This document shows, piece by piece, positions 9,789 through 40,147 of a stretch of DNA of 64,000 nucleotides (position 1 is its first letter; each line of letters starts with the position of its first letter). The DNA lies in the IMG/VR virus record IMGVR_UViG_2880389630_000005; one strand, 5' to 3'. This DNA is from a virus (lineage: Duplodnaviria > Heunggongvirae > Uroviricota > Caudoviricetes). The translations under genes and the position numbers were made by a program. The notes under the pieces are model-generated. The model was not told where the DNA came from. It saw only the letters and a program-made list of their open reading frames with translations, and searched no databases.

Positions 9789-9789
9789 T

Positions 9790-14531: not shown

Positions 14532-14543
14532 GACTTAGTTTAG

Positions 14544-15099: not shown

Positions 15100-15124
15100 T
15101 GGGCCTCAGAAAAAGGAGACACTT

Positions 15125-17699: not shown

Positions 17700-17745
17700 C
17701 CACAGCGGCCCGGTTTTCCGGGCCGTCTGATATTCGGGATTTGTA

Positions 17746-18486: not shown

Positions 18487-18487
18487 C

Positions 18488-20128: not shown

Positions 20129-20131
20129 TTA

Positions 20132-22880: not shown

Positions 22881-23428
22881 GCAACGGTAAACTGGATATT
22901 AAGATTGATTTAAGCGCGTATAACACCACGCTGGGGAAACTGATTCGTTCCGTGAAGGACCGGCACGACCTGATGACGGCACTTGCGGGTTCCATGCTGG
23001 ATGCGGTTGAGACTAACTTTGAACAACAGGGTCGCCCGAAATGGATGGGCTGGAGTCCGGCTTATGCGAAGCGACGCGGCCCCGGGCAAATCCTTCAGAA
23101 GTCCGGGCGACTGGCTGCCAGTATCCGCTCTGCGGTTAACAATAACGAGGCCACGGTCGGGACAAACGTCCGTTATGCCCGTATCCACAACGAAGGCGGC
23201 GAAATCCGCCATCAGGCACGGACGCAGAACCTGTATTTTAAACAGTACAAAAACGGCAGCGTCAGCACCCGCTTTGTGAAAAAGCGCAACAGTAATTTTG
23301 TGCAGAGCGCAACTGTCGGGGCATATACGGTCAACATGCCCGCGCGCCCCTTCCTTCAGCTCGTGCAGGACGACATCGACGAGCTGGAGAACACCGCAAA
23401 CCGCTATTTTGCGCGTGTGATTGACTGA
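22877..23428 (+). CDS. Virion morphogenesis protein (Mu G-like)
   Basis: 183 aa; position after F; ARPFL C-terminal motif. Confidence 0.8.
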   Translation: MSNGKLDIKIDLSAYNTTLGKLIRSVKDRHDLMTALAGSMLDAVETNFEQQGRPKWMGWSPAYAKRRGPGQILQKSGRLAASIRSAVNNNEATVGTNVRYARIHNEGGEIRHQARTQNLYFKQYKNGSVSTRFVKKRNSNFVQSATVGAYTVNMPARPFLQLVQDDIDELENTANRYFARVID

Positions 23429-23583
23429 ATGGCGACAAACGCGCTGTAATCGGCTGTGACGGCATAAACGCCTCACGGATGAGGCATAACAGCACCGCGC
23501 CCCATAAATGCCGTCAGAATCGTTTTTAAAAGGGTTTTAAAAACGGTTTTATTTCCCTTTTTATCCTTTCGCGTTATGGCAGG

Positions 23584-24753
23584 GTGCTGAACACCCTCCA
23601 CAGTACCCCGGCTTCCCCTTCCGTCATCATGCCGCGTATGAAACTGAAAATTGCGGCGTTAAGCCTCGAAATTACTAAAGCAACCCACAGCGAAATCCAG
23701 CTGTTACCGGCAGGCGAGTTCAGCGCGGTGGATGGTCGCCCACATACCGATGAAGTCGAAAGCGGTAAATGGGTGCTGACTGCCGAACTGGCCGCGCAGC
23801 TTGTCGCACAGGTGGCCGCCCGCGCCACGCCTTTTGTCATTGATTACGAACATCAGACGCTGCGCGCCGTAAACAACGGCAAGCCCGCCCCGGCGGCGGG
23901 CTGGTTCAGCCAGGTGGAATGGCGTGAAGGTTCGGGCTTGTATGCCACCGGTGTGGAGTGGACGGAGAACGCGGCGGCCATGATTGCCGCCGGTGAGTAC
24001 AAATTTATTTCCCCGGTATTTGGATACAACCGGCGCGGCGAAGTCATTGAACTGTTACACGCCGCACTGACCAATACCCCGGCGCTGGACGGTATGGACG
24101 CGGTCATGCTGGCTGCGGCCAGCCGTCTGGCGAGTCTGTCAACTGAAACGGAGACCACAACAGTGGATGAAGAACTGTTAAACGATTTGCTGTCCAGTCT
24201 GCGCTGGATGCTTAACCTCCCGGTTACCTCAACGGCGGAAGATATCAAAAACGAGCTGCAAAAGGTCGTTGACATGATTTCGAACGGTCAGGGAACGGCG
24301 GCGGCATCCGTCAGCCTGCTGGCCCTGCTGAATCAGAAAGATGAGCAAATCGCCAGCCTGTCAGCCAGTGCCTATGACCCGTCAAAACACATTTCCCTTG
24401 CTGCCTTCGAAGAACTTCAGGGGCGTTATGCCGCACTGGCGCAACAGTCCGGTGAGGCCGAAGCCGGGACACTGATTCAGGCGGCGCTGTCTGACGGGCG
24501 ACTGCTTCCGGCACAGGAAGACTGGGCGAAAGATTACGCCAGCCGCGATATCAACGGCTTTAAGTCCTGGCTGGAGAACGCACCGAAACTTGTTGCGCTC
24601 AGTCAGACACAGACCGGCGGCAAAGCCCCCAAAACGCCGTCGCCTGCCCCGGCGCAGATTAAAACCGGCGATGACGTCGATGTCGATATCGCCATTTGTT
24701 CAATGATGGGCGTCGATCCAGAGGATGTCGCCCGTTACGCAGGAGATGAGTAA
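23584..24753 (+). CDS. Head maturation protease/scaffold (Mu I-like)
   Basis: Up to 389 aa; true start may be ATG 23629 or 23638; position between G and major head. Confidence 0.8.
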   Translation: MLNTLHSTPASPSVIMPRMKLKIAALSLEITKATHSEIQLLPAGEFSAVDGRPHTDEVESGKWVLTAELAAQLVAQVAARATPFVIDYEHQTLRAVNNGKPAPAAGWFSQVEWREGSGLYATGVEWTENAAAMIAAGEYKFISPVFGYNRRGEVIELLHAALTNTPALDGMDAVMLAAASRLASLSTETETTTVDEELLNDLLSSLRWMLNLPVTSTAEDIKNELQKVVDMISNGQGTAAASVSLLALLNQKDEQIASLSASAYDPSKHISLAAFEELQGRYAALAQQSGEAEAGTLIQAALSDGRLLPAQEDWAKDYASRDINGFKSWLENAPKLVALSQTQTGGKAPKTPSPAPAQIKTGDDVDVDIAICSMMGVDPEDVARYAGDE

Positions 24754-25149
24754 ATGGATCGCAATACCCCCTACCGTGACGGCGAACTGAACCCGGTGCC
24801 GGTTGCCGCTGCGACCGAAATTTTTGGTGGTCATATGGTGGCCGTTAACGCATCCGGTTATGCCGTTCCGGCCAGTGCCACGGCCTCACAGATTACGCTG
24901 GGCGTGTCTGATGGCTGGGCGGATAACAGTACCGGCAGCGATGGCGATGTCACCGTTCTGGTGCGTTGCGGCAAAGATTTTCTGATGGTGAACAGCACCT
25001 CAGACCCGGTCACACAATCGCAGGTCGGCAAGCTGTGCTACGTGGAAGACAGCGTAACCGTGGCAAAAACCGACAACAGCAGCGCCCGTCCTGTCGCCGG
25101 GAAAGTGATCGGCATCTGTGGCGATGGCGTCTGGGTTCATTTCAGTTAA
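24754..25149 (+). CDS. Hypothetical head-associated protein
   Basis: 131 aa; between protease/scaffold and major head genes. Confidence 0.55.
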   Translation: MDRNTPYRDGELNPVPVAAATEIFGGHMVAVNASGYAVPASATASQITLGVSDGWADNSTGSDGDVTVLVRCGKDFLMVNSTSDPVTQSQVGKLCYVEDSVTVAKTDNSSARPVAGKVIGICGDGVWVHFS

Positions 25150-25159
25150 GGAGCAAAAC

Positions 25160-26068
25160 GTGTTAGTCAACGTTAAAAACGTCAAACAGATTTTTATCAA
25201 TCTGAAGGCCACCTTCCAGAAAGCCTTCGACCAGTCGCCAACTGACTGGCAGAAGGTGGCAATGGAAGTGCCATCAAACGGCAAGGAAAACGACTACAGC
25301 TGGTTAAGTCGTTTCCCGAAAATGCGCGAGTGGATTGGCGACAAGGTCGTTAAATCACTGGCGGCATTTAACTACACCATCCGTAACAAGGACTGGGAAG
25401 CCACGGTTGAAGTCGATCGTAACGACATCGAGGACGACCAGATTATGGGCTATGCCCTTCAGGCAAAAGGAGCCGGACAGTCGGCGGCAGAACTCCCGGC
25501 AGATATTGTGGCGTCCCTTATCAGTAACGGTTTTACCAATCCCTGTTACGACGGCCAGATGTTCTTTGATACCGACCACCTGGTCGCCGGTAAATCGGTG
25601 TCCAATAAAGGCACCAAAAAACTCAAAGTTGGCTCGCTTGCCGAGGCGAAAGCCTCCTACGGTGCCGCCCGTACTGCCATGCGCAGCCTGAAAGATGACG
25701 AAGGCGCATCCCTCAAAATTCGCCCGAATCTGCTGGTTGTGCCACCGGCGCTGGAAGATGACGCGAACTACCTGATGACCGCCGAGAAGTTCCCGGACGG
25801 TACGCCGAACCCGTACCGCAGTACCGCCGACGTGCTGGTGATGCCGGAGCTGGCGTCGGATTCTGCGTGGTTCCTGTTTGACACCACCAAACCGGTGAAA
25901 CCGCTGATTTATCAGCTGCGTAAAAAGCCTGTTTTTGTGGAGCAGACGGACTACAACAGCGACAACGTGTTCAAGCGTAAGAAGTTCCTGTTTGGTGCCG
26001 AAGCGCGCTGTAACGGCGGTTACGGCTTCTGGCAGATGGCATTTGGTTCTGATGGTACGACGGAGTAA
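25160..26068 (+). CDS. Major head subunit (Mu T-like)
   Basis: 302 aa from GTG 25160 with RBS aaggagcaaaac; longest ORF begins 25118. Confidence 0.9.
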   Translation: MLVNVKNVKQIFINLKATFQKAFDQSPTDWQKVAMEVPSNGKENDYSWLSRFPKMREWIGDKVVKSLAAFNYTIRNKDWEATVEVDRNDIEDDQIMGYALQAKGAGQSAAELPADIVASLISNGFTNPCYDGQMFFDTDHLVAGKSVSNKGTKKLKVGSLAEAKASYGAARTAMRSLKDDEGASLKIRPNLLVVPPALEDDANYLMTAEKFPDGTPNPYRSTADVLVMPELASDSAWFLFDTTKPVKPLIYQLRKKPVFVEQTDYNSDNVFKRKKFLFGAEARCNGGYGFWQMAFGSDGTTE

Positions 26069-26071
26069 TGC

Positions 26072-26413
26072 ATGGAAAAGGTGATTGAAATTACCGCCCG
26101 CCGCGAGGGTTTTCGCCGCTGCGGTGTGGCACACAGCGCAACCACGAAGGCATGGCCTGTGGATGCGTTCACCCCGGAACAGCTGGCGGTGCTGAAGGCT
26201 GACCCCATGCTGATTGTGGTGGAGCGCGATAAAGCGTCCGGTCAGAACGACGCGGTCCGGGGTGATGAACTGGCCGCACAGCTGGATGCCGAACGTCAGA
26301 AAGTCAGCGAACTGACGGCGCAGCTGGAAGAAGAACGCCAGAAAGTCAGTGAACTGACCGCACAGCTGAACGCCGCACAGAAAACACAAAAAGCGGAGAA
26401 AAAGGAGAAGTAA
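26072..26413 (+). CDS. Hypothetical coiled-coil protein with internal tandem repeat
   Basis: 113 aa; ERQKVSELTAQL repeated twice; K/E-rich tail. Confidence 0.5.
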   Translation: MEKVIEITARREGFRRCGVAHSATTKAWPVDAFTPEQLAVLKADPMLIVVERDKASGQNDAVRGDELAAQLDAERQKVSELTAQLEEERQKVSELTAQLNAAQKTQKAEKKEK

Positions 26414-26416
26414 CCC

Positions 26417-26848
26417 ATGTCTTACGCCACACCGGAACAGTTCATCAGGGCGTTCAGTGAACGCGAGGCGTGCACACTGACGGATGAAGAGATGACCGGG
26501 CTTATCAACGAGGAAAAGCTGGCCTCCGCGCTTGCGCGTGCCAGTGCCCAGATTGATGGCTATCTGGTGGGGCGTTACCGGACCCCGTGGCCTGACAGCC
26601 CGGGGATTCTGGTGGGTTACTGCTGCGATATCGCCCGTTATCACCTGGCGACCGATTACCGTATCTGCTCAGAAGAAATTCAGATGCGCTACCGGGACGC
26701 CATCCGCTTTCTGGAGAAAGTCGCGGCAGGACAAATCAACCTCGGGCGGGATACGTCCGGCAGCGTGATCCCGTCATCGTCACAGGTGCGTATCCGCTCC
26801 GGCTCCCGTCAGTTCGGGCGTGAGTCCACGCGGGGAGGTGCATTCTGA
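26417..26848 (+). CDS. Mu gp36-like head-tail connector protein
   Basis: 143 aa; position and similarity to Mu gp36 family. Confidence 0.75.
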   Translation: MSYATPEQFIRAFSEREACTLTDEEMTGLINEEKLASALARASAQIDGYLVGRYRTPWPDSPGILVGYCCDIARYHLATDYRICSEEIQMRYRDAIRFLEKVAAGQINLGRDTSGSVIPSSSQVRIRSGSRQFGRESTRGGAF

Positions 26849-26901
26849 TTACTGAAATTGAACGGGCGCTGGTTGAACGTCTGCGTTGTGGTCTGGGGAA
26901 A

Positions 26902-27483
26902 ATGGTGCGGGAAGTCCGCACCTATGCCGGTGAACTGGATGAAGACCCGGGCCGGATTGTTCGCAGCCTTCCGGCAGCCTGGGTGACGTTCGGCGGCATC
27001 GCGAAAACCGAACGCTATTCCACGTCACGCCAGAAATACATTGCCACCGGACGCTTTGTGGTTGTGGTGGGTGATTACAACACCCGCAGCGAACAGAGCG
27101 CCAGACAGGGAGGCACCGTCCGGGATGAGGTCGGTACAAACCTGCTGGTTGAATCCGTCCGTCGCCTGCTGACCGGTCAGGATTTGGGGCTGGAGATTGA
27201 TTATTTCGAACCCGGGCGTGTCAGGACGCTGTTTAACACCGGCGTGGCAGAGCGGGCAATGTCCGTGTTTGCCTGTGAGTTTGATACCCGCTGGGTGGAG
27301 CACGCGCTGGAGAACGGCAAATGGCCGGAGCGCGGTGCAGAAGCGGATATGGCTTTCAACCGTTACCACGGCCGTCTGTCAGACCCCGACCCGGATTTAC
27401 TGCGAATTGGTACGCAATACGGCGCAGATATCTGTGGTCTGGATGAATTAAGAGAGCAACAGCATGAACAAAATGAAGGTTAA
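26902..27483 (+). CDS. Mu gp37-like protein
   Basis: 193 aa; start may lie upstream (frame open from 26848). Confidence 0.7.
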   Translation: MVREVRTYAGELDEDPGRIVRSLPAAWVTFGGIAKTERYSTSRQKYIATGRFVVVVGDYNTRSEQSARQGGTVRDEVGTNLLVESVRRLLTGQDLGLEIDYFEPGRVRTLFNTGVAERAMSVFACEFDTRWVEHALENGKWPERGAEADMAFNRYHGRLSDPDPDLLRIGTQYGADICGLDELREQQHEQNEG

Positions 27484-27697
27484 GGCGGCTCCCGGGATGA
27501 AGTTCCCGATGGAGGATAACGCCCGGAAATACATCACCACGGAAGCGGTGATCGTTGAAAACACCGCTTATTACCGGCGCGCTGTTCAGGATGGTGACCT
27601 GATTCTGGTGGCTGAAGAGCCTGAAACGGCAGAACAGGACACCGGACCAGAAAAAGCGAAGGTGAAGAAAGAGAAACAGGTGGGCTCCGATGAGTGA
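27464..27697 (+). CDS. Mu gp38-like small protein
   Basis: 77 aa; immediately upstream of sheath gene. Confidence 0.55.
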   Translation: MNKMKVKAAPGMKFPMEDNARKYITTEAVIVENTAYYRRAVQDGDLILVAEEPETAEQDTGPEKAKVKKEKQVGSDE

Positions 27698-29111
27698 AAT
27701 TCAGTTTGACACCATTTCGGGCAGTATCCGTAAGCCCGGTGTGCATTTTGAGTTTAATACCCGGCTGGCCGTTAACACGTTGCCGGGTAACGAACAGCGT
27801 GTTCTGGTGATTGGCCCGATGCTGCCTGATGGCACCGCCACCCCCCTGAATGCGGTTTCTGTGTATTCCGAAGACGAAGCGGATTTGTATTTCGGGGCCG
27901 GTTCACTGGCCGCAGCAATGGCGCGCGCGGCCATTAACGCCAACAGCTATCTGCAACTGGATGTTATCGGTATTGCAGACGGTGGTGCAGGAAAAGCAGC
28001 AACAGGCGCAGTTAAAGTCACCGGCACTGCAACCAGCAGCGGTACGCTGTCGGTATGGATTGCTGGCGAGCAGATCGCCATTAATGTGGACGTCGGGGAT
28101 GAACCGTCGAAAATCATTCCGGCACTGGTGACGGCAATGACGCAGACGCCATCGCTTCTGGTCACGGGGGAATACAAATCTGACACCTCTCAACTGACAG
28201 TGACCGCCCGGACCAAAGGTACCTGGGGGAATGATATCACCCTGTCGGTATCCACCACTGCAACCGGCCTTGTAGTGGCTACCACGCCGATGGCGAGCGG
28301 CGAAATGGACCCGGATATTCAGCCCGCACTTGATGCGGTCTTTGCTGCCGGTCACAACATTCTGATTTGTCCGTTCAGTACCACGCCAGCCCTTGCCGCC
28401 CTGAAGCAGCACCTGGAGAAAACCGGGAACGCGATGGAACAGCGTGGCGCGATTGGTTGTGCGGGCTGGACAGGTAGTCTGGGAAACGGGATCACCCTGG
28501 CAGCCGGTGTGAACAGCGGGCGCGTGTCTGTCCCCTGGTATCGTGGTTCTGTGATGCTTCCTGCTGTGCTGGCCGCCATCTACGGCGCAGTAATGGCGAG
28601 CGAAGAAGACCCGGCACGCCCGCTGAACTCGCTGGCGCTGTCCGGGCTGGATGTGGTCGCCATGTCACAGCGCGAAAGCCGTAACGAGCAGGAAAGCGCC
28701 CTGCATAACGGCCTGACACCGGTTGAGGTTGGACCGGGTAATACGGTGCAGATTGTGCGTGCGGTCAGTACCTACACGGTGAACGCTCAGGGTGTGGCTG
28801 ATGTCTCGTTACTGGATATCACGTCCATCAGAACACTGGACTACACCCGCAAGGCGTGCCGCGAACGTATCAGCCTTCGCTTCCCGCGTGAAAAACTCAG
28901 CACCCGAACCATCGCAAAAGTGGAAAGCGAACTGTATGACGTGCTGCTCAAGCTGGAGGAGTCTGAAATTCTGGAGAATGTGGAAGCGAATAAGGCAAAA
29001 CTGCGCGTTCAGCGAAACGGGAAAGATGCAAATCGCCTGGACTGCGCGATCCCTGCCGACGTGGTTAACGGCCTGCATGTGTTTGCCGGTCGCATCGACA
29101 TGATTTTGTAA
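27690..29111 (+). CDS. Tail sheath protein (Mu L-like)
   Basis: 473 aa; contractile-tail sheath size and position. Confidence 0.9.
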   Translation: MSEIQFDTISGSIRKPGVHFEFNTRLAVNTLPGNEQRVLVIGPMLPDGTATPLNAVSVYSEDEADLYFGAGSLAAAMARAAINANSYLQLDVIGIADGGAGKAATGAVKVTGTATSSGTLSVWIAGEQIAINVDVGDEPSKIIPALVTAMTQTPSLLVTGEYKSDTSQLTVTARTKGTWGNDITLSVSTTATGLVVATTPMASGEMDPDIQPALDAVFAAGHNILICPFSTTPALAALKQHLEKTGNAMEQRGAIGCAGWTGSLGNGITLAAGVNSGRVSVPWYRGSVMLPAVLAAIYGAVMASEEDPARPLNSLALSGLDVVAMSQRESRNEQESALHNGLTPVEVGPGNTVQIVRAVSTYTVNAQGVADVSLLDITSIRTLDYTRKACRERISLRFPREKLSTRTIAKVESELYDVLLKLEESEILENVEANKAKLRVQRNGKDANRLDCAIPADVVNGLHVFAGRIDMIL

Positions 29112-29123
29112 GGAGCCTGATAA

Positions 29124-29498
29124 ATGTCCCTGAAAGAATATATCGGCTCGATTGTGTTGGAAATTGACAGCCAGGAAATCGAGATCACCGACCTTGATGT
29201 TCAGATCAACACCGGGCGAAAGCTGGTCAAGACCATGAACAAAACCGGCAGGGCTAAAGGCTTTGCCCGTGGCATTGCCACCTACGAACTGTCCGTTTCG
29301 GCGGTTATTCCTGATACCAACGAGCCGGACTGGGAAAATCTGGAAGGTGTGAAAATCTCGCTGTACCCGCTCAGTAACAGCGGCAAACGCACCTCTTATC
29401 TGGACTGCTTCACAACCGAAGTGGGTGAGAAATACACCGTCGATAATGAAGCGAAAATTGATATCAAAATGGCTGCACTCAGGAAGGTGGAAGGATGA
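29124..29498 (+). CDS. Tail tube protein (Mu M-like)
   Basis: 124 aa; follows sheath. Confidence 0.85.
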   Translation: MSLKEYIGSIVLEIDSQEIEITDLDVQINTGRKLVKTMNKTGRAKGFARGIATYELSVSAVIPDTNEPDWENLEGVKISLYPLSNSGKRTSYLDCFTTEVGEKYTVDNEAKIDIKMAALRKVEG

Positions 29499-29878
29499 CG
29501 ATTATCGCTACACAGACCGGCGAACTGTCCGATGGCCTGGTTTTTAACGGCACCATTCATAAAAACTTTGAGCTGCGTCTGCCGGTCATGCGTGATAACG
29601 GGCAGGCACTGGAAGAAACTGAAGAACGCTTTCAGACAGTGGACGGCTTCGCGGCGGATTATTACTACCGCTGTGCGGTGATGGCGGCAACGCTGGTCCG
29701 TCTGGGGGATATTCCGCAGGAAGAACTGACGGCGGAGCTGTTGCACGACAACATGACGCCGGAAGATTTTAATATTCTGCTGGCATCACGCAACGTCCTG
29801 AAGGTAAAGCGGAACGGCGGGAATCCCGGCTCGCCGGACTCCGGCTCGCAGTCCTTATCCTCGGGCGCTACGGAATAA
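29495..29878 (+). CDS. Tail assembly chaperone (Mu gp41-like)
   Basis: 127 aa; between tube and tape measure. Confidence 0.65.
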   Translation: MTIIATQTGELSDGLVFNGTIHKNFELRLPVMRDNGQALEETEERFQTVDGFAADYYYRCAVMAATLVRLGDIPQEELTAELLHDNMTPEDFNILLASRNVLKVKRNGGNPGSPDSGSQSLSSGATE

Positions 29879-29892
29879 CCGAAGAACAAATC

Positions 29893-30051
29893 ATGACCAT
29901 GAGCCGTCCCGAGCTGGACGGCTGGCTTGCCGCCGTTGACAGGCTGAACGGCGGCGGCTCAGGAAGAAAGGACACCTCACAGACCACCCGCCAGTCATTT
30001 AAATCCCTCAGAAAGAAACGCAGAAAAGGTAAACAGAAAAATGGCCGGTAA
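29893..30051 (+). CDS. Small basic ORF between chaperone and tape measure (possible frameshift extension)
   Basis: 52 aa, very basic tail; overlaps tape-measure start. Confidence 0.25.
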   Translation: MTMSRPELDGWLAAVDRLNGGGSGRKDTSQTTRQSFKSLRKKRRKGKQKNGR

Positions 30052-32314
30052 TTTCAAAGTTGGCATGACCCTGACTGCGAAGGACGAAGCCTCGCAGGTT
30101 CTGGAAAAGGGACAAAAACAGGTTATCAAAGCCACCGAAGGTGTAACAAAGGCAACCCGGAAGGCAGGCGCAGAGCAGACGCGTACCGGGCAGGAAAGCG
30201 TTAACAGCACGAAAAAGGCGGCAAAAGAGATACAGCGTGCCGCCCGTGCCCGGGAAACGCTCGGTATTCGTGCAGAACGTGAAATCCGGCGTGAAATTTA
30301 TCAGACGGTTGCCAGCTATAACCGTCTGGCCCGCGCCGGTTTTGAATCTGCGCAGGAGCAGGAGCGCGCCATGCAGGCCACCCGGGAAAAAGCCCGGGCA
30401 CTCAAGCGTGAACTGGATGGCGTTACTCAGGCACAGATGAAGATGGCGAAAACGCCTGTTATCCCCGAACGGGGGCGTTTTGCGCGTGCGGCTGCATTTG
30501 GCGGGAATGCCATGACAATAGGCGGCGGAATTATGGCAGGAGCCGCCATTATGACGCAACCAGTCAGAAATCAAATGAGTTATGAACGTCAGCTCAGCAT
30601 GATGGCGAACACGGAGTTCAGTGATGGTGGTCTGGAAGGCAGGCAGTTTGGGCGTGAAAAGCTGAAAAACAGTATCCGCGCGGCGGTAACGTATGGTGGC
30701 GGAACGAAAGAGGATGCAGCTGAAGCAATGAATGAGATGTTGGCCAGCGGCGCTTTTTCCTGGGATACCGCGAATAATCTCTTACCGCAGATTATGAAAT
30801 TTGCTACTGCATCCGGCGCATCTCCACGCGATCTGGTCACTATGGCGGCCAAAGCTAAACAAACATTTGGACTGACAGATGACGACCTCCCGGCCATGTT
30901 TAATATGGCTGTCGCAGCAGGTAAAGCGGGTAATTTTGAGCTACGGGATATGGCGGAATATCTTGGACCTCAGATGGCATTAGCTGGTAACGCCGGAATG
31001 AAAGGACTGGATGGACTCCAGAAATTACTGGCATTTAATGAGGTCGCAGGGATTGCCGCAGGCAGCAGCAGTGAAGCAGGTAATAACGTTGTAAACCTGC
31101 TGGCCAAACTTTTCAGTAGTGAATCAGCAACAAGGGCGAAAAGCATCACGATTGATGGCAAAGGTATTGATCTACCTGGTACGTTGACCCGAGCTATGGA
31201 AAACGGCATTGATCCGATAGAAGCATTTTCACGCCTCACTGATAAAGTCACCGCGAACAACAAACAATATCAGGAGCTTCAGAAGCGTCTGGCAGCAACA
31301 AAAGACAAAGGCCAGCAGGACAAAATCCTAGAGTCTATGGCGAAAATTCTTGAGGGGTTCGGTGTTGGTGAGCTTGTTGGTGATATGCAGGCACTGAAGG
31401 CAATCCTGGCTTACAGGAATAACCCGGAATACCTAAAGCAGGTCGAAACTGAAATCAGTCAGCAACGCACCCTGCCGGAAGGTCAGCGCGCCGGAGATCT
31501 GGATTTTAAATTCATGTCAGGTACGAATGATTTTAAAACCGAACAGGCTAAAAACACGCTTGAATTTTCACAAATGGACAGCGTGAAAAAGCTGGCTGAT
31601 GCGTCCGGTACTGTGGCCGATGCCATAAGCTGGGCGGGTGAAAAGTTTCCGGGGCTGACCACGGCAGTGGTGGGTGCTACGACCGCAATTGAAGCGATGA
31701 CCGCAGCGGCTCTGACATGGGCCGGGATCAAAATCCTGACCGGGGGTAAACCCGGTGGCAAGGCTGGCGAGGTTGTTGGTGATGTAATTGAAAACACGGT
31801 CAAAAAAGGCAAAGGATTTAAATTCCCCGGTATTGCCGGTGGCCTGCTTTCTTTAGGTGGCACTGTTACGGCACTGGCCACCGCAACCAGCCCGGAAGAA
31901 GACGCCGCCGTCGAAGGAAGCGAAGAACGCTGGAAACGCATCCGCGCCCGATACACCCAGGAAGAAATCGACGCCGCCCGCAAAAAATACCAGCCATGGT
32001 GGCAGTTTGGGGAAGGCTATTCCACCGAAAACGAAGAATGGTTGAGGCGCTGGGAGGAAGACAGGAAAAAAGCCGCAGCTGATGCCCTGCCATCACCGGC
32101 GCAGGTTAACAAAGCCGCAGGAAACACAAAGCCTGAACCGGCATCAACACAACCCGGACGCATCACCCAGCCGGAATACCTCACGCACTGGGGGCCACCT
32201 GCCAGCCCCATTAATTTCACCACACAACTGGTGCTCGATGGTCAGGTCGTGGCGGAGGCAGTGAACAAATACAACCTTCAGGACGGTAACAGAGGTACGG
32301 GAGGAACTTACTGA
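30041..32314 (+). CDS. Tail tape measure protein
   Basis: 757 aa; Ala/Gly-rich helical protein at the tape-measure position. Confidence 0.9.
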   Translation: MAGNFKVGMTLTAKDEASQVLEKGQKQVIKATEGVTKATRKAGAEQTRTGQESVNSTKKAAKEIQRAARARETLGIRAEREIRREIYQTVASYNRLARAGFESAQEQERAMQATREKARALKRELDGVTQAQMKMAKTPVIPERGRFARAAAFGGNAMTIGGGIMAGAAIMTQPVRNQMSYERQLSMMANTEFSDGGLEGRQFGREKLKNSIRAAVTYGGGTKEDAAEAMNEMLASGAFSWDTANNLLPQIMKFATASGASPRDLVTMAAKAKQTFGLTDDDLPAMFNMAVAAGKAGNFELRDMAEYLGPQMALAGNAGMKGLDGLQKLLAFNEVAGIAAGSSSEAGNNVVNLLAKLFSSESATRAKSITIDGKGIDLPGTLTRAMENGIDPIEAFSRLTDKVTANNKQYQELQKRLAATKDKGQQDKILESMAKILEGFGVGELVGDMQALKAILAYRNNPEYLKQVETEISQQRTLPEGQRAGDLDFKFMSGTNDFKTEQAKNTLEFSQMDSVKKLADASGTVADAISWAGEKFPGLTTAVVGATTAIEAMTAAALTWAGIKILTGGKPGGKAGEVVGDVIENTVKKGKGFKFPGIAGGLLSLGGTVTALATATSPEEDAAVEGSEERWKRIRARYTQEEIDAARKKYQPWWQFGEGYSTENEEWLRRWEEDRKKAAADALPSPAQVNKAAGNTKPEPASTQPGRITQPEYLTHWGPPASPINFTTQLVLDGQVVAEAVNKYNLQDGNRGTGGTY

Positions 32315-33663
32315 TGGGCTGGGCTGAAAACCTGCAAAACGCTTCCTTTCGTGGCGTGCAGTTTGAGGTGCTGAATACTGACGAACAAATCAGCCGCGAC
32401 CATGCGGTCTATGAATACCCGTTTGTTGACGGGGCGGATTTGCACGACCTCGGACGCAAGGCGCGACCGTTCCGCATGACGGCGTTCCTGTGGGGCGATG
32501 ACTATGAATATAAACTCGGGAAACTGACCGCCGCCCTGGATGAAGGCGGCGATGGTGAACTGATTCATCCGGTTTATGGCTCTGTGCCGTCGGTGATTGT
32601 GACCGGCTACAACATCCGCCATGACGCAGAAAGCCCGGACAGCTGCACCATTGACATGAGTTTTCTGGAAAACCGCACCGGTAGCGCGTTGTTCAGCACC
32701 CCGTTACCGGAGCTGTTCGCGCAACAGTTGTTTGATGAACTGGACACTTTACAGGCGCGGTTAAGTGATTTTTTTGATGCCGTTACTGCACCTTTAAATA
32801 CCGTTAACGGCATGATTAAAAAAGCCCAGACAGTGCGTGCCACACTGGTGAATACCCTGCTGTCGTTCAAAAGTGATTTTGTCTCCACTGTCGATAATAT
32901 CGTGTCACTGGCAGGCGAACCCGGAAAATTTATCAATGAACTGGCAGAGGTGCTGGAAATCCACACATCAGATGTCGGGCAACCGGTGCAGGTTCTGCAA
33001 CGTGTTGATTCTGCCACCCGGACCGGGTTGGCAGGAGAGACGACCGTCGCCAGTTCTGCGACAGTGATGAACTGCTGGAATAAGGTCATCACTGATATGG
33101 ATGAATTTGTTGCGTTGCCTGTTACCCTGGTCAGTGGCGATAAAGTAGCGGAGGTGGCACTTCCTGCGGATGCCTCGCCAGACGATGTGCAGGATGTGAA
33201 AGCAGTTTACGCAACACAGGCCGCATCTGAACTGGCCAGTGTTGCAATGGCGATACTGGTTGATGATGCGCAGTCAGAACAGCTTATACCGGCGGATATC
33301 GGGCGACTGGTCGGGGATGTGCGCACCCGCTTACAGGCTGCCATCACGCTGTTCCGTGAACGCTATGAAGGCGAACGCGAACGGATAACCGAAACCGCAT
33401 CACCGCTGGGGCTGATGTACCCGGAAATCATTCAGAGCATGAAAAACGTGGCGGCAACCGTGCAGGATGTCGGCCTGCTGGTTCTGTCACGCCGCCCACC
33501 GCTGACGCAGAAACAGGTGCAGGCGGACAGCTGTCTGCTGTTGCTGGCGTGGCAGTGGTACGGCGATTACAGTCGTGCGGCAGAACTGCAACGCCTGAAC
33601 CCGCAGTTACGTGACCCGAACAACATAACCGCCGGGGTGGTAATTAATGCCTACGCCAAATAA
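32314..33663 (+). CDS. DNA circularisation protein (Mu N-like)
   Basis: 449 aa; position after tape measure; Mu N-like N-terminus. Confidence 0.8.
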   Translation: MGWAENLQNASFRGVQFEVLNTDEQISRDHAVYEYPFVDGADLHDLGRKARPFRMTAFLWGDDYEYKLGKLTAALDEGGDGELIHPVYGSVPSVIVTGYNIRHDAESPDSCTIDMSFLENRTGSALFSTPLPELFAQQLFDELDTLQARLSDFFDAVTAPLNTVNGMIKKAQTVRATLVNTLLSFKSDFVSTVDNIVSLAGEPGKFINELAEVLEIHTSDVGQPVQVLQRVDSATRTGLAGETTVASSATVMNCWNKVITDMDEFVALPVTLVSGDKVAEVALPADASPDDVQDVKAVYATQAASELASVAMAILVDDAQSEQLIPADIGRLVGDVRTRLQAAITLFRERYEGERERITETASPLGLMYPEIIQSMKNVAATVQDVGLLVLSRRPPLTQKQVQADSCLLLLAWQWYGDYSRAAELQRLNPQLRDPNNITAGVVINAYAK

Positions 33664-34858
33664 CGAAGACAAAATTAGCCTGGTCATTGCCGGAAGGTCG
33701 CATTCTGACTGGAGCAGTTATCGTATTGACAGCGATTTCCTGAAAGCTGCCGACGGCTGGCAGCTTCAGCTGGGGCTGCCTGAAAAGGTGTTCCCGGCGG
33801 ATATCGTCCGGGGCGCACAAATCCGGTTGCAGGTGGGAGATGAAACGGTGCTCAGTGGGCGCATAGACAGCGTGCGCCGTAGTGTGTCCCGTCAGAGCTG
33901 CACGCTGGCCCTGTCCGGGCGTGATGATGCCGCCATCCTGGTGGACTGTGCCGCGCCGGTGTTCAGCGCCAACCAGCTGACGCTGGACGAGGTCATCGAC
34001 AGGATAGTCAGACCACTGGGGATACAGCGCATCCGTATACAGGCGTCCGGTGTGTCACGTAATGACAAAGTTGTTATTGAGCCGGGGATGCGTGCGTGGG
34101 ATGCACTGGCCAAAGCTGCCGCCGGTCGCGGCTTATGGCCGTGGTTTGAGCCTGACGGGACGCTGGTTGTGGGTGGCCCTGACTACACCACCACGCCGGT
34201 GGATACGCTGATTCTGAAGCTGAACGGCACCGGGAACAACGTGATGGAGCTGGACGATACCCGATCCATTAACGGCTGTTTCTCCGAACTGACGGTGCTG
34301 GCCCAGAGCCACGCCCGCCGCGCAGACAGCAAGAAACAGGTGGCCGTGGTGCCGCTGGATATCTGGAACGAGGACGGCAGCGTGCGCACATTATCCGGGC
34401 AGGACAGCGGTAATACGGACTGTGGTCAGACAGGCATTCATAACATGAAAGCCGTGGCCACCGACCCCACCGTGGATTATTACCGCCCGCAGATTATCAC
34501 CCAGGGCGACACCAGCAATCTGGAGCAGGTGAGCTGGCGCGCAAAAAAAATGATGAGTGATGCCCGCCTGTCGGGGCTGGATATCGTCGCACTGGTTGCA
34601 GGTCATCGCACGGCAGATGGTGTTCTGTGGCAGCCCGGCCAGCGGGTGCGGATTGTCAGCGAACTCCACGGCATTGATGCCATCTTTTTCCTGATGGGGC
34701 GTGAGTTCAGCGGAGGCCGGAACGGGCAGACAACCCGGCTTCGCTTTAAGGAGGACGGCGTGTGGATACCTGACGCCTTCCCGCGCGAGAAGAAACGCCA
34801 TCACCGCAGGGGCAAAAAGAAAAAAGAGGTCGCCATTGTTAAGGTCTGGGAGAAATGA
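33647..34858 (+). CDS. Tail/baseplate hub protein (Mu P-like)
   Basis: 403 aa; position. Confidence 0.8.
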   Translation: MPTPNNEDKISLVIAGRSHSDWSSYRIDSDFLKAADGWQLQLGLPEKVFPADIVRGAQIRLQVGDETVLSGRIDSVRRSVSRQSCTLALSGRDDAAILVDCAAPVFSANQLTLDEVIDRIVRPLGIQRIRIQASGVSRNDKVVIEPGMRAWDALAKAAAGRGLWPWFEPDGTLVVGGPDYTTTPVDTLILKLNGTGNNVMELDDTRSINGCFSELTVLAQSHARRADSKKQVAVVPLDIWNEDGSVRTLSGQDSGNTDCGQTGIHNMKAVATDPTVDYYRPQIITQGDTSNLEQVSWRAKKMMSDARLSGLDIVALVAGHRTADGVLWQPGQRVRIVSELHGIDAIFFLMGREFSGGRNGQTTRLRFKEDGVWIPDAFPREKKRHHRRGKKKKEVAIVKVWEK

Positions 34859-35508
34859 TGTGGGACAAGGTTAATCAGCGCGTACAGCAGGCACTGGCCG
34901 CCGTTCGCCAGGCATTCAGGGTGGTGATCGGTACGGTGGACAGTTCGACCAAAGTACAGCTGCTTCAGCTGAACGGGCTGGCAGGCGAACAGCTGGATGG
35001 TGCGGAGTATTTTCAGCATTACGGCCTCACCACATCCCCGCCGCCCGGCTCAATGGGTATTGCCGTTCCGCTGAATGGCAATACCTCCCATACCGTCATC
35101 GTGGCCACAGAGCACGGCGCATATCGCCTGACGGAACTGAAACCCGGCGAGGTGGCCCTGTATACCGACGAAGGCGCGAAAATCGTATTGAAGCGCGGGC
35201 GGATTATTGAAACAGAATGTGACGTTTACCGGGTGAAATGCAAACGCTATGAGGTTGAGGCAGAGGAGAACGCCGCATTCACGACACCGTTACTGACGGC
35301 CAGCGATAAGCTGACGGTGGAAGGTAAAATCACCGGCAACGGTGGCATGGCCATCCGTGGCGGCAAGGAATACGCCGCCACTTTTGAAGGCAACATCAAC
35401 CATGTGGGTGGTGTGCTTACCTCCGTTGATGTCACCATTAATGGCATTAAAATCGGAACACACAAACACCCAACCCCACACGGCATGTCTGACACGCCGG
35501 TTAATTAA
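34855..35508 (+). CDS. Baseplate assembly protein V-like (spike)
   Basis: 217 aa; gpV-like C-terminus. Confidence 0.8.
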   Translation: MMWDKVNQRVQQALAAVRQAFRVVIGTVDSSTKVQLLQLNGLAGEQLDGAEYFQHYGLTTSPPPGSMGIAVPLNGNTSHTVIVATEHGAYRLTELKPGEVALYTDEGAKIVLKRGRIIETECDVYRVKCKRYEVEAEENAAFTTPLLTASDKLTVEGKITGNGGMAIRGGKEYAATFEGNINHVGGVLTSVDVTINGIKIGTHKHPTPHGMSDTPVN

Positions 35509-35561
35509 GTGCTGAACACCCTCACCTGATTCTGACCTGTCCATGCTGCCAGACTGGCGGC

Positions 35562-35912
35562 ATGGACCAGACGATTTCACCTGCAACCGGCGACTACGAA
35601 CGCCGCCGGATTTATACACTCCATAACGCGGTTTATCTGCGACTGGCGACACCGCTTGGCAGTTACTGGGCGGATGCGTTGCTGGGGTCACGCCTGCACG
35701 AACTGAAGCGGGAAAAAGACGTTTCCCGTGTTCACAGGCTGGCGGCGCAGTATGCCAGCCAGGCACTTCAGCCCCTGCTTGATGACGGGCGGGCAAAATC
35801 CATTACTGTTGACACGAAACCGGGTCAGCGCGGCTGGCTGTTGCTGTTAATCACCGTCACGGATAACGCGGGCACACCGCAGACATTTGAACACCCTGTG
35901 AGGATTATGTAA
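35562..35912 (+). CDS. Baseplate protein (Mu gp46-like)
   Basis: 116 aa; position. Confidence 0.7.
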   Translation: MDQTISPATGDYERRRIYTLHNAVYLRLATPLGSYWADALLGSRLHELKREKDVSRVHRLAAQYASQALQPLLDDGRAKSITVDTKPGQRGWLLLLITVTDNAGTPQTFEHPVRIM

Positions 35913-36991
35913 TGCCGTTTCCTGTTCCGGGCGTTGCTGAAAACACAGAACGCCAGCTACGTGATATCGCTAACGCCCTGCCGGGAGAAACCATCGACAC
36001 CAGCGCTGACAGCGATTACCGCATTCGTGCAAATGCCGTATCCGGTGTGGCTGACGGGCTTTATATGCATCAGGGGTGGATACTCCGTCAGGTGTTTCCT
36101 GACACGGCAGACCCTGAATATCTGGAGCTGCACTGCCGCACGCGCAATGTTTTTCGTAAAAAAGCGACCGCCTCATCCGGTCCGGTGGTGATTACCGGCA
36201 CTCCCGGTAAGACACTGCCAGCCGGTGCGGAAATTCGTGGTGAAGGTGTCAGCGTGTCCACCACAGCAGACTGCACCATCGGCCACGAAGGCAGCGCAGA
36301 GGTGACGGTAAAAAGCACTGCCACGGGGGCACTGACGAATGCATCCACGACGCAGACGGCAACGCTGGTCAGTCCGCCGGAAGGCATCAACAGCACGGTG
36401 ACGATTAAATCCCTGACCGGTGGAACAGACAGGGAAAGCAACGCCGACCTGCTGGCGCGTTATCTGGACATTCTGCGCAGGCCGCCCGCTGGCGGTAATA
36501 AATATGATTACAAACGCTGGGCGCTGGAAGTGGATGGCGTTACCTCGGCATATGTGGAGCCATTACGTCGTGGACTGGGGACGGTTGATGTGGCCATTAC
36601 GTCAGCCAATGACCTTCCCTCGCAGGAACTGATTAATGCCGTGCTGGCACATATTGAGGAAGTCTGCCCGGTCACAGCAAAGGACACGATGGTACTGGCC
36701 CCGACGAAAAAAGCCGTTGATTTCGTTGTCCGGGTAAAAACCAGCGGCCTGACCGTTGAGCAGATAAAACCACAGATAACTGAAGTTATCACGGATTTTA
36801 TGAACCGACTGGAGCCGGGGCAGGAATTAATTATTTCACAACTGGAAACTCAGATTTCATTAATTTCTGGCGTCAGTGACCGGCGGATTATTATGCCGTC
36901 AGATAATGTAAAAGCAGTTGTCAATGAATCCACATGGGAGTGGCTGCGTCCGGGGAGTATTGATATCCAGCCATTTCCCCGGGAGAGTTAA
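35912..36991 (+). CDS. Baseplate J-like protein (Mu gp47-like)
   Basis: 359 aa; position and size. Confidence 0.85.
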   Translation: MPFPVPGVAENTERQLRDIANALPGETIDTSADSDYRIRANAVSGVADGLYMHQGWILRQVFPDTADPEYLELHCRTRNVFRKKATASSGPVVITGTPGKTLPAGAEIRGEGVSVSTTADCTIGHEGSAEVTVKSTATGALTNASTTQTATLVSPPEGINSTVTIKSLTGGTDRESNADLLARYLDILRRPPAGGNKYDYKRWALEVDGVTSAYVEPLRRGLGTVDVAITSANDLPSQELINAVLAHIEEVCPVTAKDTMVLAPTKKAVDFVVRVKTSGLTVEQIKPQITEVITDFMNRLEPGQELIISQLETQISLISGVSDRRIIMPSDNVKAVVNESTWEWLRPGSIDIQPFPRES

Positions 36992-36994
36992 TAC

Positions 36995-37567
36995 ATGAAT
37001 ACGGTTGATTTATTTCGTGCCATGTTACCACCGGTCAGCTATGACCCGAACGGGAAATATATTTCAACAGAACTGAACGCAGAAGCAGCCATTATGGATG
37101 AAGTAAAAGCGTCAGCTGCACGAGTGCTTGCATCTGTCACACCATTTTACGCATCCATGACACTGTCTGACTGGGAACGAGTGTATGAAGTAATACCCCG
37201 CGATGGTGCCACACAGCAGGAACGCCGAGAAAATATTCTTATAAAGATGGCTGCAACTGGTGGGTTATCTATCCCTTATTTTAAACAACTTGCAGCCAGC
37301 CTCGGGTACACCATAACAATTACTGAACTCCATCCATTTAGAACGGGGGTAAACCGATGTGGTGATCGTCTCTATATAACAGATGCCCGATGGATTTGGC
37401 AGGTTAATGTCACAGGAAGCAAAACGCCAGCTTACAGATTCAGAACCGGAGTATCTGCTGCCGGGGAACCGTTACTTTCCTTTGGTGCCCCTGTACTGGA
37501 AGAAACATTTAAAGAGCTTAAACCCGCTTTTACTTATTGCCATTTCACATATAAGGAGGAGCAGTAA
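36995..37567 (+). CDS. Tail protein (Mu gp48-like)
   Basis: 190 aa; position. Confidence 0.75.
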
Positions 37568-39945
37568 TGCAAAATCTGATGCCCCCGATAAATACACCGG
37601 ATCAATTGTTTCATGATGGTGACCCCACTCAGGGGATAGAAGGAACCATCGTAACTGCTGATTATTTAAACAATCAGCAGGGGGCAATCCGTGATTTACA
37701 GCAGGAACTCCTTAATGTTCTTGGTAGTGTACATATTCAACCTGCCCCCCAAAAAACGGATCAGCTACTTACCGCGCTTCGTGCGCTGCTGTTAAGCCGC
37801 AAGAATCCGTTTGGCGATATCAAATCGGATGGCACGGTAGAACGCGCTCTTGAAAATCTGGGGTTACAGGATGTAAAAGCTGGTTCATTGAACAATCTGT
37901 ACACTAACCATTCCCGTAGTGTCTTAATGGAATTGCCGTTATTATTCCCGGACTACGATACGGTGCTGGCTGCTCAGTCTGGTGCGGAATATATGTATCC
38001 ACAGGGATTTGTGGTGACAGGAGAAAAAATCTATCTGAGTTATACCGTTGAGCCAAAGCAGACACGGAACGTTATAGTTCAGTACACAACATCCGGCGAA
38101 TATGAGGGATATTATTATGTCGATAATGGAGGTCGTGGCGTTGTCAGCGAAGGCCTTGTGGTGACAACGGATTACGGTGGATTACGTTTGTTCATGTCAG
38201 GAGAAAATGGATTACTGAAACAGTTTTCGCTTGATGGGGCAATTTCTGGTTCAGTATTGCCGTTAATTGATGAACATGATGTCGGTGTTTACAACCAGTT
38301 CAGCTATCGTAAAAACCGCTGGGTGGTTGAACAGTCAGCGCCGGAAGTGGGAGGCCTGATCACCCGCACAGTATTTGCGGTGTATGATTTTCAGTTTCGT
38401 CGGACAGGGACATTCACATTACCGTTGCATGATTCCGGATATATCACGGAAAGCACAGACAGCTATGCAAGACGCTTCACAAAACGTCAGGGAATTGCTG
38501 TGGGAGACGATTATATTGCCTGTTCTTATGGTGGCTATTTTAATACCGGGGCATCAGCCGGATTTAACCAGTTTCAGGGGGTTAAGGTCTTTTCTCCGGA
38601 TGGAGTAAAGCAGCAGGAATCCATTCTTCATCCCCAAAAAATGATAGATGTGCTTACCAGGCAGGGTTTTACACCTTCGCGCATTGAGAACGAAGGAATT
38701 TGTATTTCTGACGACGGCGGCAGTATATATTCGCTTTATATCTTTCTGGAGCGTGGGTTACCACAGGCTTATCAGAAAGGAATTGTTCTGATGAAAGAGT
38801 TCAGTACTGGCAGAGATGCTATTGATTTTCGTCAGGCAGCCTGGTTGTACACGGGGTTTGATGTGTCTCATGCCAGTATTGGAACATTTCCCCGTAGTGC
38901 CCAGGGGTTGGTAAACCCGGTGTTGGGGACGGTATTCACATCCCTGTCTGAAATTCTGGCATATATGCGTTCTGTGAGTCAGAAATGGTTTTGTCTGCAT
39001 ACAACCACGACACCGATTAAAGATCTGAGTGGAAATGACATTCCTGCTGACAATTATGTGTTCATCAAGAATGCTAATAACCAGACATTCTATATAACGC
39101 AGGAGTCAGCTGAAGGTGGAATAAAATATAAAGCTGTCACTACAGACAGCGGAGAATATGGTTTTCAGCGACAAAGAGAGGCAATCTGGTCCAATGTTAT
39201 CACCATCGCACAAAAGAGCGATGGTGAGGATCAGTTTAATCGTATTATCGCTGCCTCGAAAAGTGGTTCGGGTAAAAATCAGGATAAAATACTGGTAGTT
39301 GACCAACAGGCATCAGAGGGGAATAACACGCTGGTAATTGGCGGTGGTTCATCTGTGTTCAGGTCAGCGACAGTGATTGATTTTGCAACGAATCAGGATG
39401 CAAATGCCACAGGAGGAGAAAAGAGATGGCGCATAGATTCATCAGGAAATCTCCGCCCTTATACAGATAATACGTATTCGATCGGTTATGCCTCATGGCG
39501 ACCCGCACAGGTTTATTCAGCTACGGGAAGTATCAGTACATCAGACCGGACTCATAAACAGGACGAAACAATTCTGTCGGATGCAGAAAAAAGGGTTGCC
39601 AGAAAGCTGCTCGGGTATATCTGTCGGTTCCGTTTCAGGGATGCAGTGTCCAGCAAAGGGAACGCAGCCAGATGGCATGTAGGAGTGATTGCTCAGGACG
39701 TACAGAAGGTCTTCTCCGAGGAAGGGCTGGACGCTTTTGATTACGGTATTTTGTGTCGTGATGAATATCCGGCGGAATATGAAGTGGTTTACGGGACTCG
39801 TATGGAGCTTGGTTCTGACGGACTCCTTACAATGGAAGAATACGATACCGGAGAGCGCAAGCTGGTCAGGGAGGCTGGTGAAATAATGTCTGTAAGGAAT
39901 GATGAGCTGCATTATTTCATGCTGGCATCGCTGTCTGGCCAGTGA
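37567..39945 (+). CDS. Tail fibre protein with C-terminal intramolecular chaperone (peptidase S74-like) domain
   Basis: 792 aa; C-terminal SDRTHKQDE...[11 protein letters not shown] matches the self-cleaving chaperone signature; last gene before prophage right end. Confidence 0.8.
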
Positions 39946-40060
39946 ATAATATTAATGTAAGGAGCGATATAAGCTCCTTACATCATGCATTTTATGCTGC
40001 GATTATGCGTTCTCCTGTTGTTTGTTGCTGAGAGTGAAACACCGGAAACATAACTAATAA

Positions 40061-40147
40061 GTTAGCGCCCAATTCTGGGCTTTTTGGCTGAGATCTCCCC
40101 GCCCAGAATTGGGCGCTAATTAGCCCAGAAAAAAACGCGAAGTTACA
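40061..40147 (+). repeat. Prophage right end: 19-bp inverted repeat TTAGCGCCCAATTCTGGGC/GCCCAGAATTGGGCGCTAA plus inverted TTCTGGGC motif copies
   Basis: Perfect inverted repeat at 40061-40080 and 40101-40119; CCCAGAA at 40123-40130. Confidence 0.55.

Follow-up and report, generated by a model that had tools for sequence, protein, structure and literature searches.

A probable chimeric receptor-binding protein with a cis-encoded chaperone in the inversion slot of a Mu-type Escherichia coli prophage

How does a Mu-type phage assemble its receptor-binding protein, and what sets its host range, when the invertible segment, the invertase and the fiber assembly gene are all missing from its fiber locus? 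This question is raised by a 64,000-nucleotide stretch of DNA from a tailed virus (Caudoviricetes; IMG/VR record IMGVR_UViG_2880389630_000005; hereafter the window, to which all positions refer unless another locus is named), in which the open reading frame (ORF) at 37567-39945 closes a 35.8-kb Mu-type prophage (Table 1). A first-pass annotation made from the DNA letters had described its product as a tail fiber with a self-cleaving C-terminal chaperone domain that replaces the G-inversion system of Mu. We consider it very probable that the gene encodes a chimeric, sole receptor-binding protein with a cis-acting, self-removing chaperone, most of which was imported as a cassette into the slot of an inversion system. 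It would then be the only receptor-binding protein of an intact Mu-type myophage, with residues 1-100 native to the phage and residues 101-792, together with 107 bp of 3' noncoding DNA, acquired from elsewhere.

The ORF comprises 792 codons plus a stop, and both the ORF listing and the translation show an uninterrupted frame. Its ATG shares bases with the stop codon that ends the gp48-like gene (TAATG), and an AAGGAGG ribosome-binding site lies upstream. Pfam finds a single domain in the 792-aa protein, Peptidase_S74 (PF13884; aa 659-721, E = 1.3e-9), with a score of 38.6 bits that exceeds the curated cut-off of 22 bits and a match that covers the full profile (1-58). The S74-type chaperone that the first-pass annotation had placed at this C terminus is thereby confirmed, and both motifs quoted for it, SDRTHKQDE and a second one, are present. 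Searches with phmmer against PDB sequences retrieve the chaperone regions of the T5 L-shaped fiber pb1 (4uw8, E = 8e-17), the phi29 appendage gp12 (3gud, E = 1e-14) and the K1F endosialidase endoNF (3gw6, E = 8e-14). The first residue of the released phi29 fragment (3gud) aligns with S659, and the last residue of the mature T5 pb1 fragment (4uw7) aligns with T658, its final 54 residues corresponding to aa 604-658 of the window protein. Opposite S659, 4uw8 and 3gw6 have an alanine (in the segments TADARLK and TANGERK, respectively), which we take to mark non-cleaving Ser-to-Ala mutants made for crystallization, and the conserved lysine of 4uw8, 3gud and 3gw6 falls opposite K664. The protein has, in other words, a Ser/Lys dyad (S659 and K664, five residues apart) at the start of a domain that occupies its extreme C terminus (aa 659-792 of 792) and follows a putative trimeric stalk. 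The alignments predict cleavage between T658 and S659, with a mature protein of 72.4 kDa (aa 1-658) and a released chaperone of 15.3 kDa (aa 659-792) as products.

The likeness to endoNF, pb1 and gp12 thus extends to a homologous S74 domain (E given as 1e-14 to 1e-17), the same aligned serine and lysine positions, and a domain placed after a trimeric stalk at the extreme C terminus; endoNF also shows a parallel order of propeller, stalk and chaperone. The window protein differs from all three in that its N-terminal adaptor is of the Mu type, its virion is that of a transposable myophage and its cleavage is only predicted, and it differs from endoNF in that its propeller is five-bladed and of the phi11 type rather than a six-bladed sialidase, with no sialidase Pfam match.

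As the first-pass annotation had stated, the fiber gene is the final gene of the prophage: 202 bp separate its stop codon from the right end at 40147, and this stretch, which contains a terminator-like hairpin and the end repeats, holds no hidden chaperone ORF, all six frames being closed or trivially short. We searched the whole window by tblastn with Mu Gin (a sequence not taken from a database record), PinE from the K-12 record, the two Tfa proteins and the alternative fiber tip of the relative in E. coli E2348/69 described below, and the Tfa proteins, second fiber and DUF4376 protein from two other relatives; the only significant match to any of these probes was the first 100 aa of the fiber itself. 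With respect to an invertase, the window gave Mu Gin no match below E = 6 and K-12 PinE no match at E <= 1. These negatives are meaningful, since the same probes pick up short remnants in related loci, namely, stubs of 31 codons in the E2348/69 relative and of 20 codons in an e14-like prophage. The absence of a separate fiber assembly gene, on which the earlier reading had been made to depend, consequently stands both downstream of the fiber and, as far as Tfa matches go, across the window, and the statement that there is no gin was likewise borne out.

The same is true of the invertible segment, as the only inverted repeat of at least 16 nt within 37400-40160 is the hairpin of the right end. 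We also considered a retained crossover site, which is ruled out: AAACCNNGGTTT, allowing up to one mismatch, has no match in the prophage and two chance matches elsewhere in the window. At the position equivalent to the Din-invertase crossover site, the peptide ENLGL is retained and the crossover core is destroyed. Neither an invertase by the fiber locus nor an inverted site pair with alternative tips and tfa, the marks of a Din-invertase switch, is found here. The G segment/gin of Mu and the P segment/pin of e14 occupy the same slot, after gp48/ymfQ, and start inside the fiber gene at the ENLGL-encoding end of the constant region; close relatives of the window prophage still have such a segment, and its crossover sites match the e14 ones exactly. 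In contrast to both systems, the window has no second fiber tip, tfa, invertase or intact crossover site, and it would have one specificity instead of two and a chaperone in cis instead of in trans. Because there is one tip, no invertase and no crossover site, specificity would be unable to switch, and because the chaperone is predicted to act in cis, no Tfa would be needed.

What this slot holds in related prophages is best seen in enteropathogenic E. coli (EPEC) E2348/69 (locus L003), the closest backbone without the cassette, which is 96.2% identical at the DNA level over 36995-37865, loses homology at 37865 and picks it up again only at 40053-40148 (92%). Its slot (L003 10921-13401) contains a 249-aa fiber, tfa, an opposed tfa' and an opposed alternative fiber C terminus, bracketed by a pair of 19-nt inverted repeats, AAACCTTGGTTTGGGAGAA, a sequence that also bounds the invertible P segment of K-12 e14. 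The invertase is reduced to a remnant of 31 codons directly before the right end (L003 13190-13282; 87% identity to PinE residues 1-31), and inversion of the segment would need an invertase in trans. Other relatives have two tandem fiber-chaperone pairs. Since relatives hold either an invertible segment or such tandem pairs there, the fiber slot of this Mu-like lineage appears to be a variable region, which in the nearest relative is apparently a decaying G/P-type inversion system. The proposed replacement of Mu G-inversion therefore needs a qualification: the same slot is indeed invertible in E2348/69, but gin is already a stub there, and it is a decaying system that was replaced.

The boundaries of the replacement can be read to the base. 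Identity of the fiber gene to its E2348/69 counterpart is 95.8% over 37567-37758 and 87.9% over 37759-37865, and residues 1-100 of the two fibers are 90% identical. The e14-like prophage of strain THO-006 (L002) matches the window from 37759 to 40052 with 99.65% identity (8 mismatches in 2,294 nt, five of them within 37866-40052). The 2.2-kb cassette (37866-40052) is absent from the E2348/69 relative and has a GC content of 45.5%, against about 54% in both backbones. Homology to the THO-006 prophage begins at 37759, homology to the E2348/69 prophage ends at 37865, and K-12 e14 matches 37759-37865 at 87%. Because these 107 bp are common to all three backbones, the left exchange can be placed within them, probably by homologous recombination. 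The right junction (40052/40053) is abrupt and adjoins the 95-bp Mu-type end. A recombination module had been suspected at about 38000-39400; it exists, but it is larger (37866-40052), the chaperone domain and the terminator being part of it. Among cassette-bearing Mu-like prophages the cassette is 99.8 to 100% conserved, as opposed to 97.1 to 97.7% for the baseplate genes. We observe the cassette in 57 of 5,426 complete E. coli genomes, each copy at least 99% identical, with strains labeled O25b:H4-ST131 among the e14-like carriers, and some genomes hold both cassette-bearing prophage types. Co-residence of the Mu-like and the e14-like prophage is plausible, since the right flank of the window is 100% identical over 11.8 kb to strains with the e14-like copy.

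The e14-like prophage tells a parallel story. It follows K-12 e14 at 95% identity from jayE via ymfQ into stfP, as far as e14 locus position 5797, which is within the left crossover site that bounds the P segment, and regains the e14 match only over the last 64 nt of pinE, a stub with an in-frame stop. In THO-006 (L002 8107-10580), about 220 bp lie between the end of the shared cassette (10294) and the pin stub (10516). Because the Mu-like and e14-like prophages carry the same cassette in that slot, it appears that in two unrelated backbones a single cassette displaced the invertible segment along with all, or most, of the invertase. The left boundary lies on the crossover site, to the base, in both backbones, and this is the basis of a further-reaching proposal: that the cassette is a "plug-in" host-range module entering at Din-invertase crossover sites, with entry possibly mediated by the invertase or guided by the site, and converting two-specificity prophages into single-specificity ones. 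To this may be added that its propeller, whose invariant K306, Q308, E374 and E376 recur in proteins of Gram-positive phages, might represent an uncharacterized class of five-bladed enzymes acting on a surface glycan of the carrier E. coli lineage. Taken jointly, we consider these suggestions unlikely.

With respect to the receptor-binding part of the cassette, an AlphaFold monomer model built on 13 sequences resolves aa 115-430 with predicted local confidence (pLDDT) mostly between 80 and 95 as some 20 strands, arranged four by four in five groups. In a Foldseek search of the PDB, Gp45 of phage phi11 comes first (5efv, 7e-14), followed by the proteins of 80alpha, NF5 and P68, all Staphylococcus phage receptor-binding proteins. 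The protein accordingly shows a five-bladed propeller platform after an N-terminal stem, as in phi11 Gp45, whose published description (PMC4901313) lists a stem, a platform formed by a five-bladed propeller and proposed to hold a GlcNAc pocket, and a tower. In comparison with the proteins of phi11, 80alpha, NF5 and P68, the stalk and the S74 chaperone appear to take the place of the C-terminal tower of Gp45, the region past the propeller not being recognizably a Gp45 tower, and any ligand is putative. E. coli has no wall teichoic acid, and this receptor is excluded because the host is Gram-negative. The first-pass annotation had called the protein a tail fiber; it is a receptor-binding protein, but of a globular propeller type nearer to a tailspike than to a thin fiber. 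The comparison with other phage fibers that had been recommended for its central domain did reveal the phi11 Gp45 type of propeller; the literature consulted offered no receptor prediction.

The propeller domain is rare, occurring in 52 of 50,697 phage records, of which 18 are enterobacterial and 34 are from Staphylococcus, Mammaliicoccus or Weissella, and in 287 cluster representatives among 1.84 billion proteins. Across 157 representatives with a median identity of 31%, K306, Q308, E374 and E376 are essentially invariant, which suggests that a site for ligand binding or catalysis has been conserved. The module that begins at about aa 105 is found in other organisms fused to N termini of the T7 type (PF03906), the P22 head-binding type (PF09008), the TSP1 type (PF18668) or the P2 tail-collar type (PF12571). 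The best phage matches are tail proteins of Kayfunavirus (46% identity overall, 52% in the propeller). The same succession of propeller, stalk and S74 domain makes up the tailspikes of E. coli podoviruses (Kayfunavirus EcoIv39_Milel, EcoIv41_Bia and LI10P1; HC6, vB_EcoP-U8 and EK8), which align over aa 109-787 with 37 to 46% identity and 52% within the propeller; they differ in their N-terminal adaptors, which are of the T7 or TSP1 type, and several are mislabeled as endosialidases. Since no sequenced phage reaches 60% identity, the specificity of the window protein is probably different from theirs. The receptor is probably a surface glycan of the carrier E. coli lineage. Papers about ST131/O25b phages and about the Kayfunavirus collection yielded nothing on this propeller module. 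A beta-propeller protein from a preprint on strain-level prediction was set aside as a candidate, being the K1 endosialidase and a different domain.

An enzymatic role was considered under several labels. The window protein is not an endosialidase by its domains, as the six-bladed sialidase families (PF12217 and related) give no match and only PF13884 and five-bladed folds are retrieved; on homologs, this label appears to derive from the common chaperone domain alone. A match to glycerophosphoryl diester phosphodiesterase (phrog_22693) was rejected as well, because it involves only the propeller part of that family (positions 445-856 in a profile of 968) and is not accompanied by a Pfam phosphodiesterase domain; we treat the label as annotation carried over from another domain. 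The names "endo-N-acetylneuraminidase" and "glycerophosphoryl diester phosphodiesterase" stand on the homologs H143-H153 (e.g., PP213477, OQ469755 and MT862763), NC_047767 and NC_018270, and are likely annotation transfer errors, since the aligned region has no sialidase or phosphodiesterase Pfam domain. It is nevertheless possible, although we hold it to be somewhat doubtful, that the propeller is a glycan depolymerase, esterase or phosphodiesterase, which would make the protein a true tailspike degrading O-antigen or capsule; this would contest only the mode of binding (an enzyme instead of a lectin-like protein such as phi11 Gp45). Against such activity, catalysis has not been reported for either of the top structural matches, phi11 Gp45 and NF5 Gp17, both of which bind receptors, and a GlcNAc-binding pocket has been proposed for Gp45 (PMC4901313). 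Nor does the protein match an enzyme family in Pfam, and the enzyme labels on homologs are unsupported in the aligned region.

For a chimeric receptor-binding protein with its chaperone in cis, we propose the following course of assembly. The N-terminal 100 residues, conserved with relatives, would dock the trimer on the Mu-type baseplate, and the S74 domain, by homology, would nucleate and template trimerization of the stalk (aa ~540-658). Self-removal dependent on Ser659 and Lys664 at the T658-S659 bond would then leave a 72-kDa mature subunit, and the receptor site would be presented by three propellers. An arrangement of this kind has a parallel in related coliphages, where one phage has an intramolecular chaperone and a close relative a separate Mu-like Tfa (PMC11990801).

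Several observations weigh against this account. Cleavage and trimerization are predictions from homology. The stalk and chaperone are poorly modeled as a monomer (pLDDT < 50 for aa 535-669), which is what would be expected of an obligate trimer, and aa 1-113 are also uninformative. The propeller cassette is common to podovirus tailspikes, and its use on a contractile Mu-type baseplate is putative. The Mu Gin probe was not taken from a sequence record, although the K-12 PinE probe, which was, is equally negative. Finally, the RefSeq annotation by PGAP splits the intact 792-codon ORF into an "incomplete" N-terminal pseudogene and a coding sequence (CDS) with an internal start, whose length is either 326 or 672 aa, depending on the genome; since no stop interrupts the frame, this looks like a systematic annotation artifact of chimeric fiber genes.

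The S74 domain might also be kept as a folding or trimerization module that is uncleaved or inactive, the mature fiber retaining its C-terminal domain. This would be compatible with cleavage being so far a prediction, and with two propeller-stalk homologs (P0011 and P0012; alignment A1, 29% identity) that end shortly past the cleavage-site position without an S74 domain; because of these two, the propeller-stalk module can exist without a cis chaperone. S659 and K664 are, however, present at the catalytic positions, in the family alignment D660 never varies and conservation of S659 is 90% or higher, and the conservation to four solved self-cleaving homologs spans the whole domain. We therefore regard an uncleaved fiber as very unlikely and retain the predicted self-removal of the chaperone.

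The element that carries the gene has a Mu-type gene set, with a Mu transposase gene (5693-7735; Mu-transpos_C, HTH_Tnp_Mu_1 and rve), a gene for an AAA+ MuB-like protein (7754-8647; AAA_22) and a divergent CI-type repressor gene at the left end (4641-5303, minus strand). By Pfam, the late genes follow the Mu-type order (Mor, portal, F, sheath, tape measure, N [DNA_circ_N], gp44-48 and fiber), with homologs of Mu gp45, gp46, gp47 and gp48 upstream of the fiber. In five complete E. coli genomes, a fiber region 99.2 to 100% identical to that of the window is flanked by different genes and homology is lost at 40147/40148. Copies lie in a TonB-dependent receptor gene beside lysP (strains S13 and AVS0151), in a prohead protease gene of another prophage (SCAID WND1) and in an M24 peptidase gene beside ypdE (Ec55). 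Counting all strains, which come from different countries, the prophage occupies at least four sites, and its ends are clean. When the window is aligned with the empty site of strain AVS0753, a target duplication of 5 bp emerges (ACTGG or CTGGT, with a one-base ambiguity, each prophage end being uncertain by one base). In the window, the prophage splits a hypothetical gene, intact in AVS0753 (WP_000086752.1), whose neighbors in a CP4-44-like island are yeeT on one side and the cbeA/cbtA toxin-antitoxin pair on the other.

The transposase/MuB pair with its divergent repressor, the many insertion sites and the late gene order together place the element among Mu-type phages. The nonamer TTCTGGGCG occurs four times in the window, each time at a prophage end, and none of 100 shuffles gave four copies; these are probably transposase end-binding sites of the Mu-like lineage, and as such putative. 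The right end contains a perfect 19-nt inverted repeat (40062-40080/40101-40119) that encloses the TTCTGGGCG motif, its hairpin being conserved in relatives, and is 92% identical to the E2348/69 prophage and 79 to 90% identical to two further relatives. The idea that the left end carries the right end as an exact inverted copy was discarded, as TGTAACTTCGCGTTTTTTT, with up to three mismatches, matches the right end alone; the ends have TTCTGGGCG in common. From the gene set, the 5-bp duplication, the varied insertion sites and the end-restricted nonamer, we conclude that the element is a Mu-type transposable prophage that was recently mobile.

Kinship to Mu is a matter of organization more than of sequence. 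The nearest isolated phages by the gp47-like protein, Klebsiella ST405-OXA48phi1.1, Mannheimia 3927AP2 and Haemophilus SuMu, share the Mu-type organization and 43 to 49% identity in this baseplate protein but no similarity at the DNA level, and a search of the phage collection returned no DNA-level relative among sequenced phages. While the kinship to Mu presumed in the first-pass annotation holds for the type of prophage, the backbone thus appears to be only distantly related to Mu itself. Related Mu-like prophages are present in 59 of 5,426 complete E. coli genomes. A further alternative, likewise very unlikely, is a defective prophage with the chimeric gene as a nonfunctional recombination scar: it would fit the PGAP call of an "incomplete" 5' part with only an internal CDS and the lack of a close isolated phage at the DNA level, but it is contradicted by the open 792-codon frame with its ribosome-binding site and translational coupling to gp48, a cluster of 365 member sequences of the full-length protein at 98% identity, a full Mu-type gene set, the cleanly bounded presence at four or more different sites in strains whose countries differ, and a cassette that is conserved more strongly than the backbone.

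Table 1. Positions of the features discussed, in window coordinates unless a locus (L) is named
Feature	Position	Strand	Basis or remark
Receptor-binding protein gene	37567..39945	+	ORF list, translation, Pfam, PDB sequence matches
N-terminal constant (baseplate-attachment) region, aa 1-100, native to Mu-like backbone	37567..37865	+	E2348/69 homology
107-bp stretch common to Mu-like backbone, e14-like prophage and K-12 e14 stfP	37759..37865	+	
Din-invertase crossover-equivalent position, degenerate	37854..37872	+	AAATCTGGGGTTACAGGAT versus AAACCTTGGTTTGGGAGAA of relatives
Imported cassette: receptor-binding domains, S74 chaperone, 107 bp 3' noncoding	37866..40052	+	2.2 kb
Five-bladed beta-propeller, aa ~115-430, putative receptor-binding or active-site domain	37909..38856	+	
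Small beta-rich domain after propeller, aa ~445-535	38899..39171	+	pLDDT ~60-79; conserved in family alignment
Predicted trimeric stalk, aa ~540-658, ending at predicted cleavage site	39184..39540	+	T5 pb1 alignment
Peptidase_S74 intramolecular chaperone domain, aa 659-792	39541..39942	+	Pfam PF13884 and PDB alignments
Codon of S659	39541-39543	+	Sequence
Codon of K664	39556-39558	+	Sequence
Terminator-like hairpin, part of cassette	39955..39983	+	Inside 99.65% identical block
Mu gp48-like baseplate wedge gene, directly upstream of fiber gene	36995..37567	+	Pfam Phage_Mu_Gp48 1e-29; phrog_203
Mu-type transposable prophage, 35.8 kb	~4330..40147	+	Pfam gene set, empty-site alignment, other insertion sites
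Nonamer TTCTGGGCG, three direct copies, left end	4347-4355, 4421-4429, 4471-4479	+	
Nonamer TTCTGGGCG, one inverted copy	40100-40108	-	Near-copy at 40072-40080
Mu-type right end, native to backbone	40053..40147	+	Relatives' homology, repeats, motif
Hypothetical gene of 214 codons split by prophage, parts	4254-4329, 40148-40718		
Further stretch of the same locus	40734-41565		
Same ORF under split RefSeq annotation	L001 6668-9046; L006 3168-5546; L007 3139-5517; L008 3133-5511; L002 7812-10187		
P22-like region: 693-aa tailspike	46963-49044	-	Pfam Head_binding and Beta_helix
P22-like region: P22-type antirepressor	49254-50186	-	

A second, P22-like prophage region lies beside dacD (~46.9-55 kb, GC content ~40%), so that the window, counting its classical tailspike, holds two distinct prophage host-recognition proteins. 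In AVS0753, ISEc52 is inserted between the tailspike and antirepressor genes; this insertion is absent from the window.

No component of the chimeric protein is without precedent, receptor-binding proteins are expected to be exchanged as modules, and current understanding is not overturned. New here are the exact junctions, a single cassette that appears to have displaced inversion systems in two prophage types, and the occurrence in E. coli prophages of a propeller of the phi11 type. The finding also corrects database annotation, namely, the pseudogene and split calls of RefSeq and the "endosialidase" and "phosphodiesterase" labels, and a lineage-specific binding or typing reagent might be made from the mature trimer (aa 1-658) or from the cassette by itself. 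The locus provides a base-resolved example of temperate phages exchanging determinants of host range, and it indicates that enterobacterial phages and prophages make use of a receptor-binding fold familiar from Staphylococcus phages.

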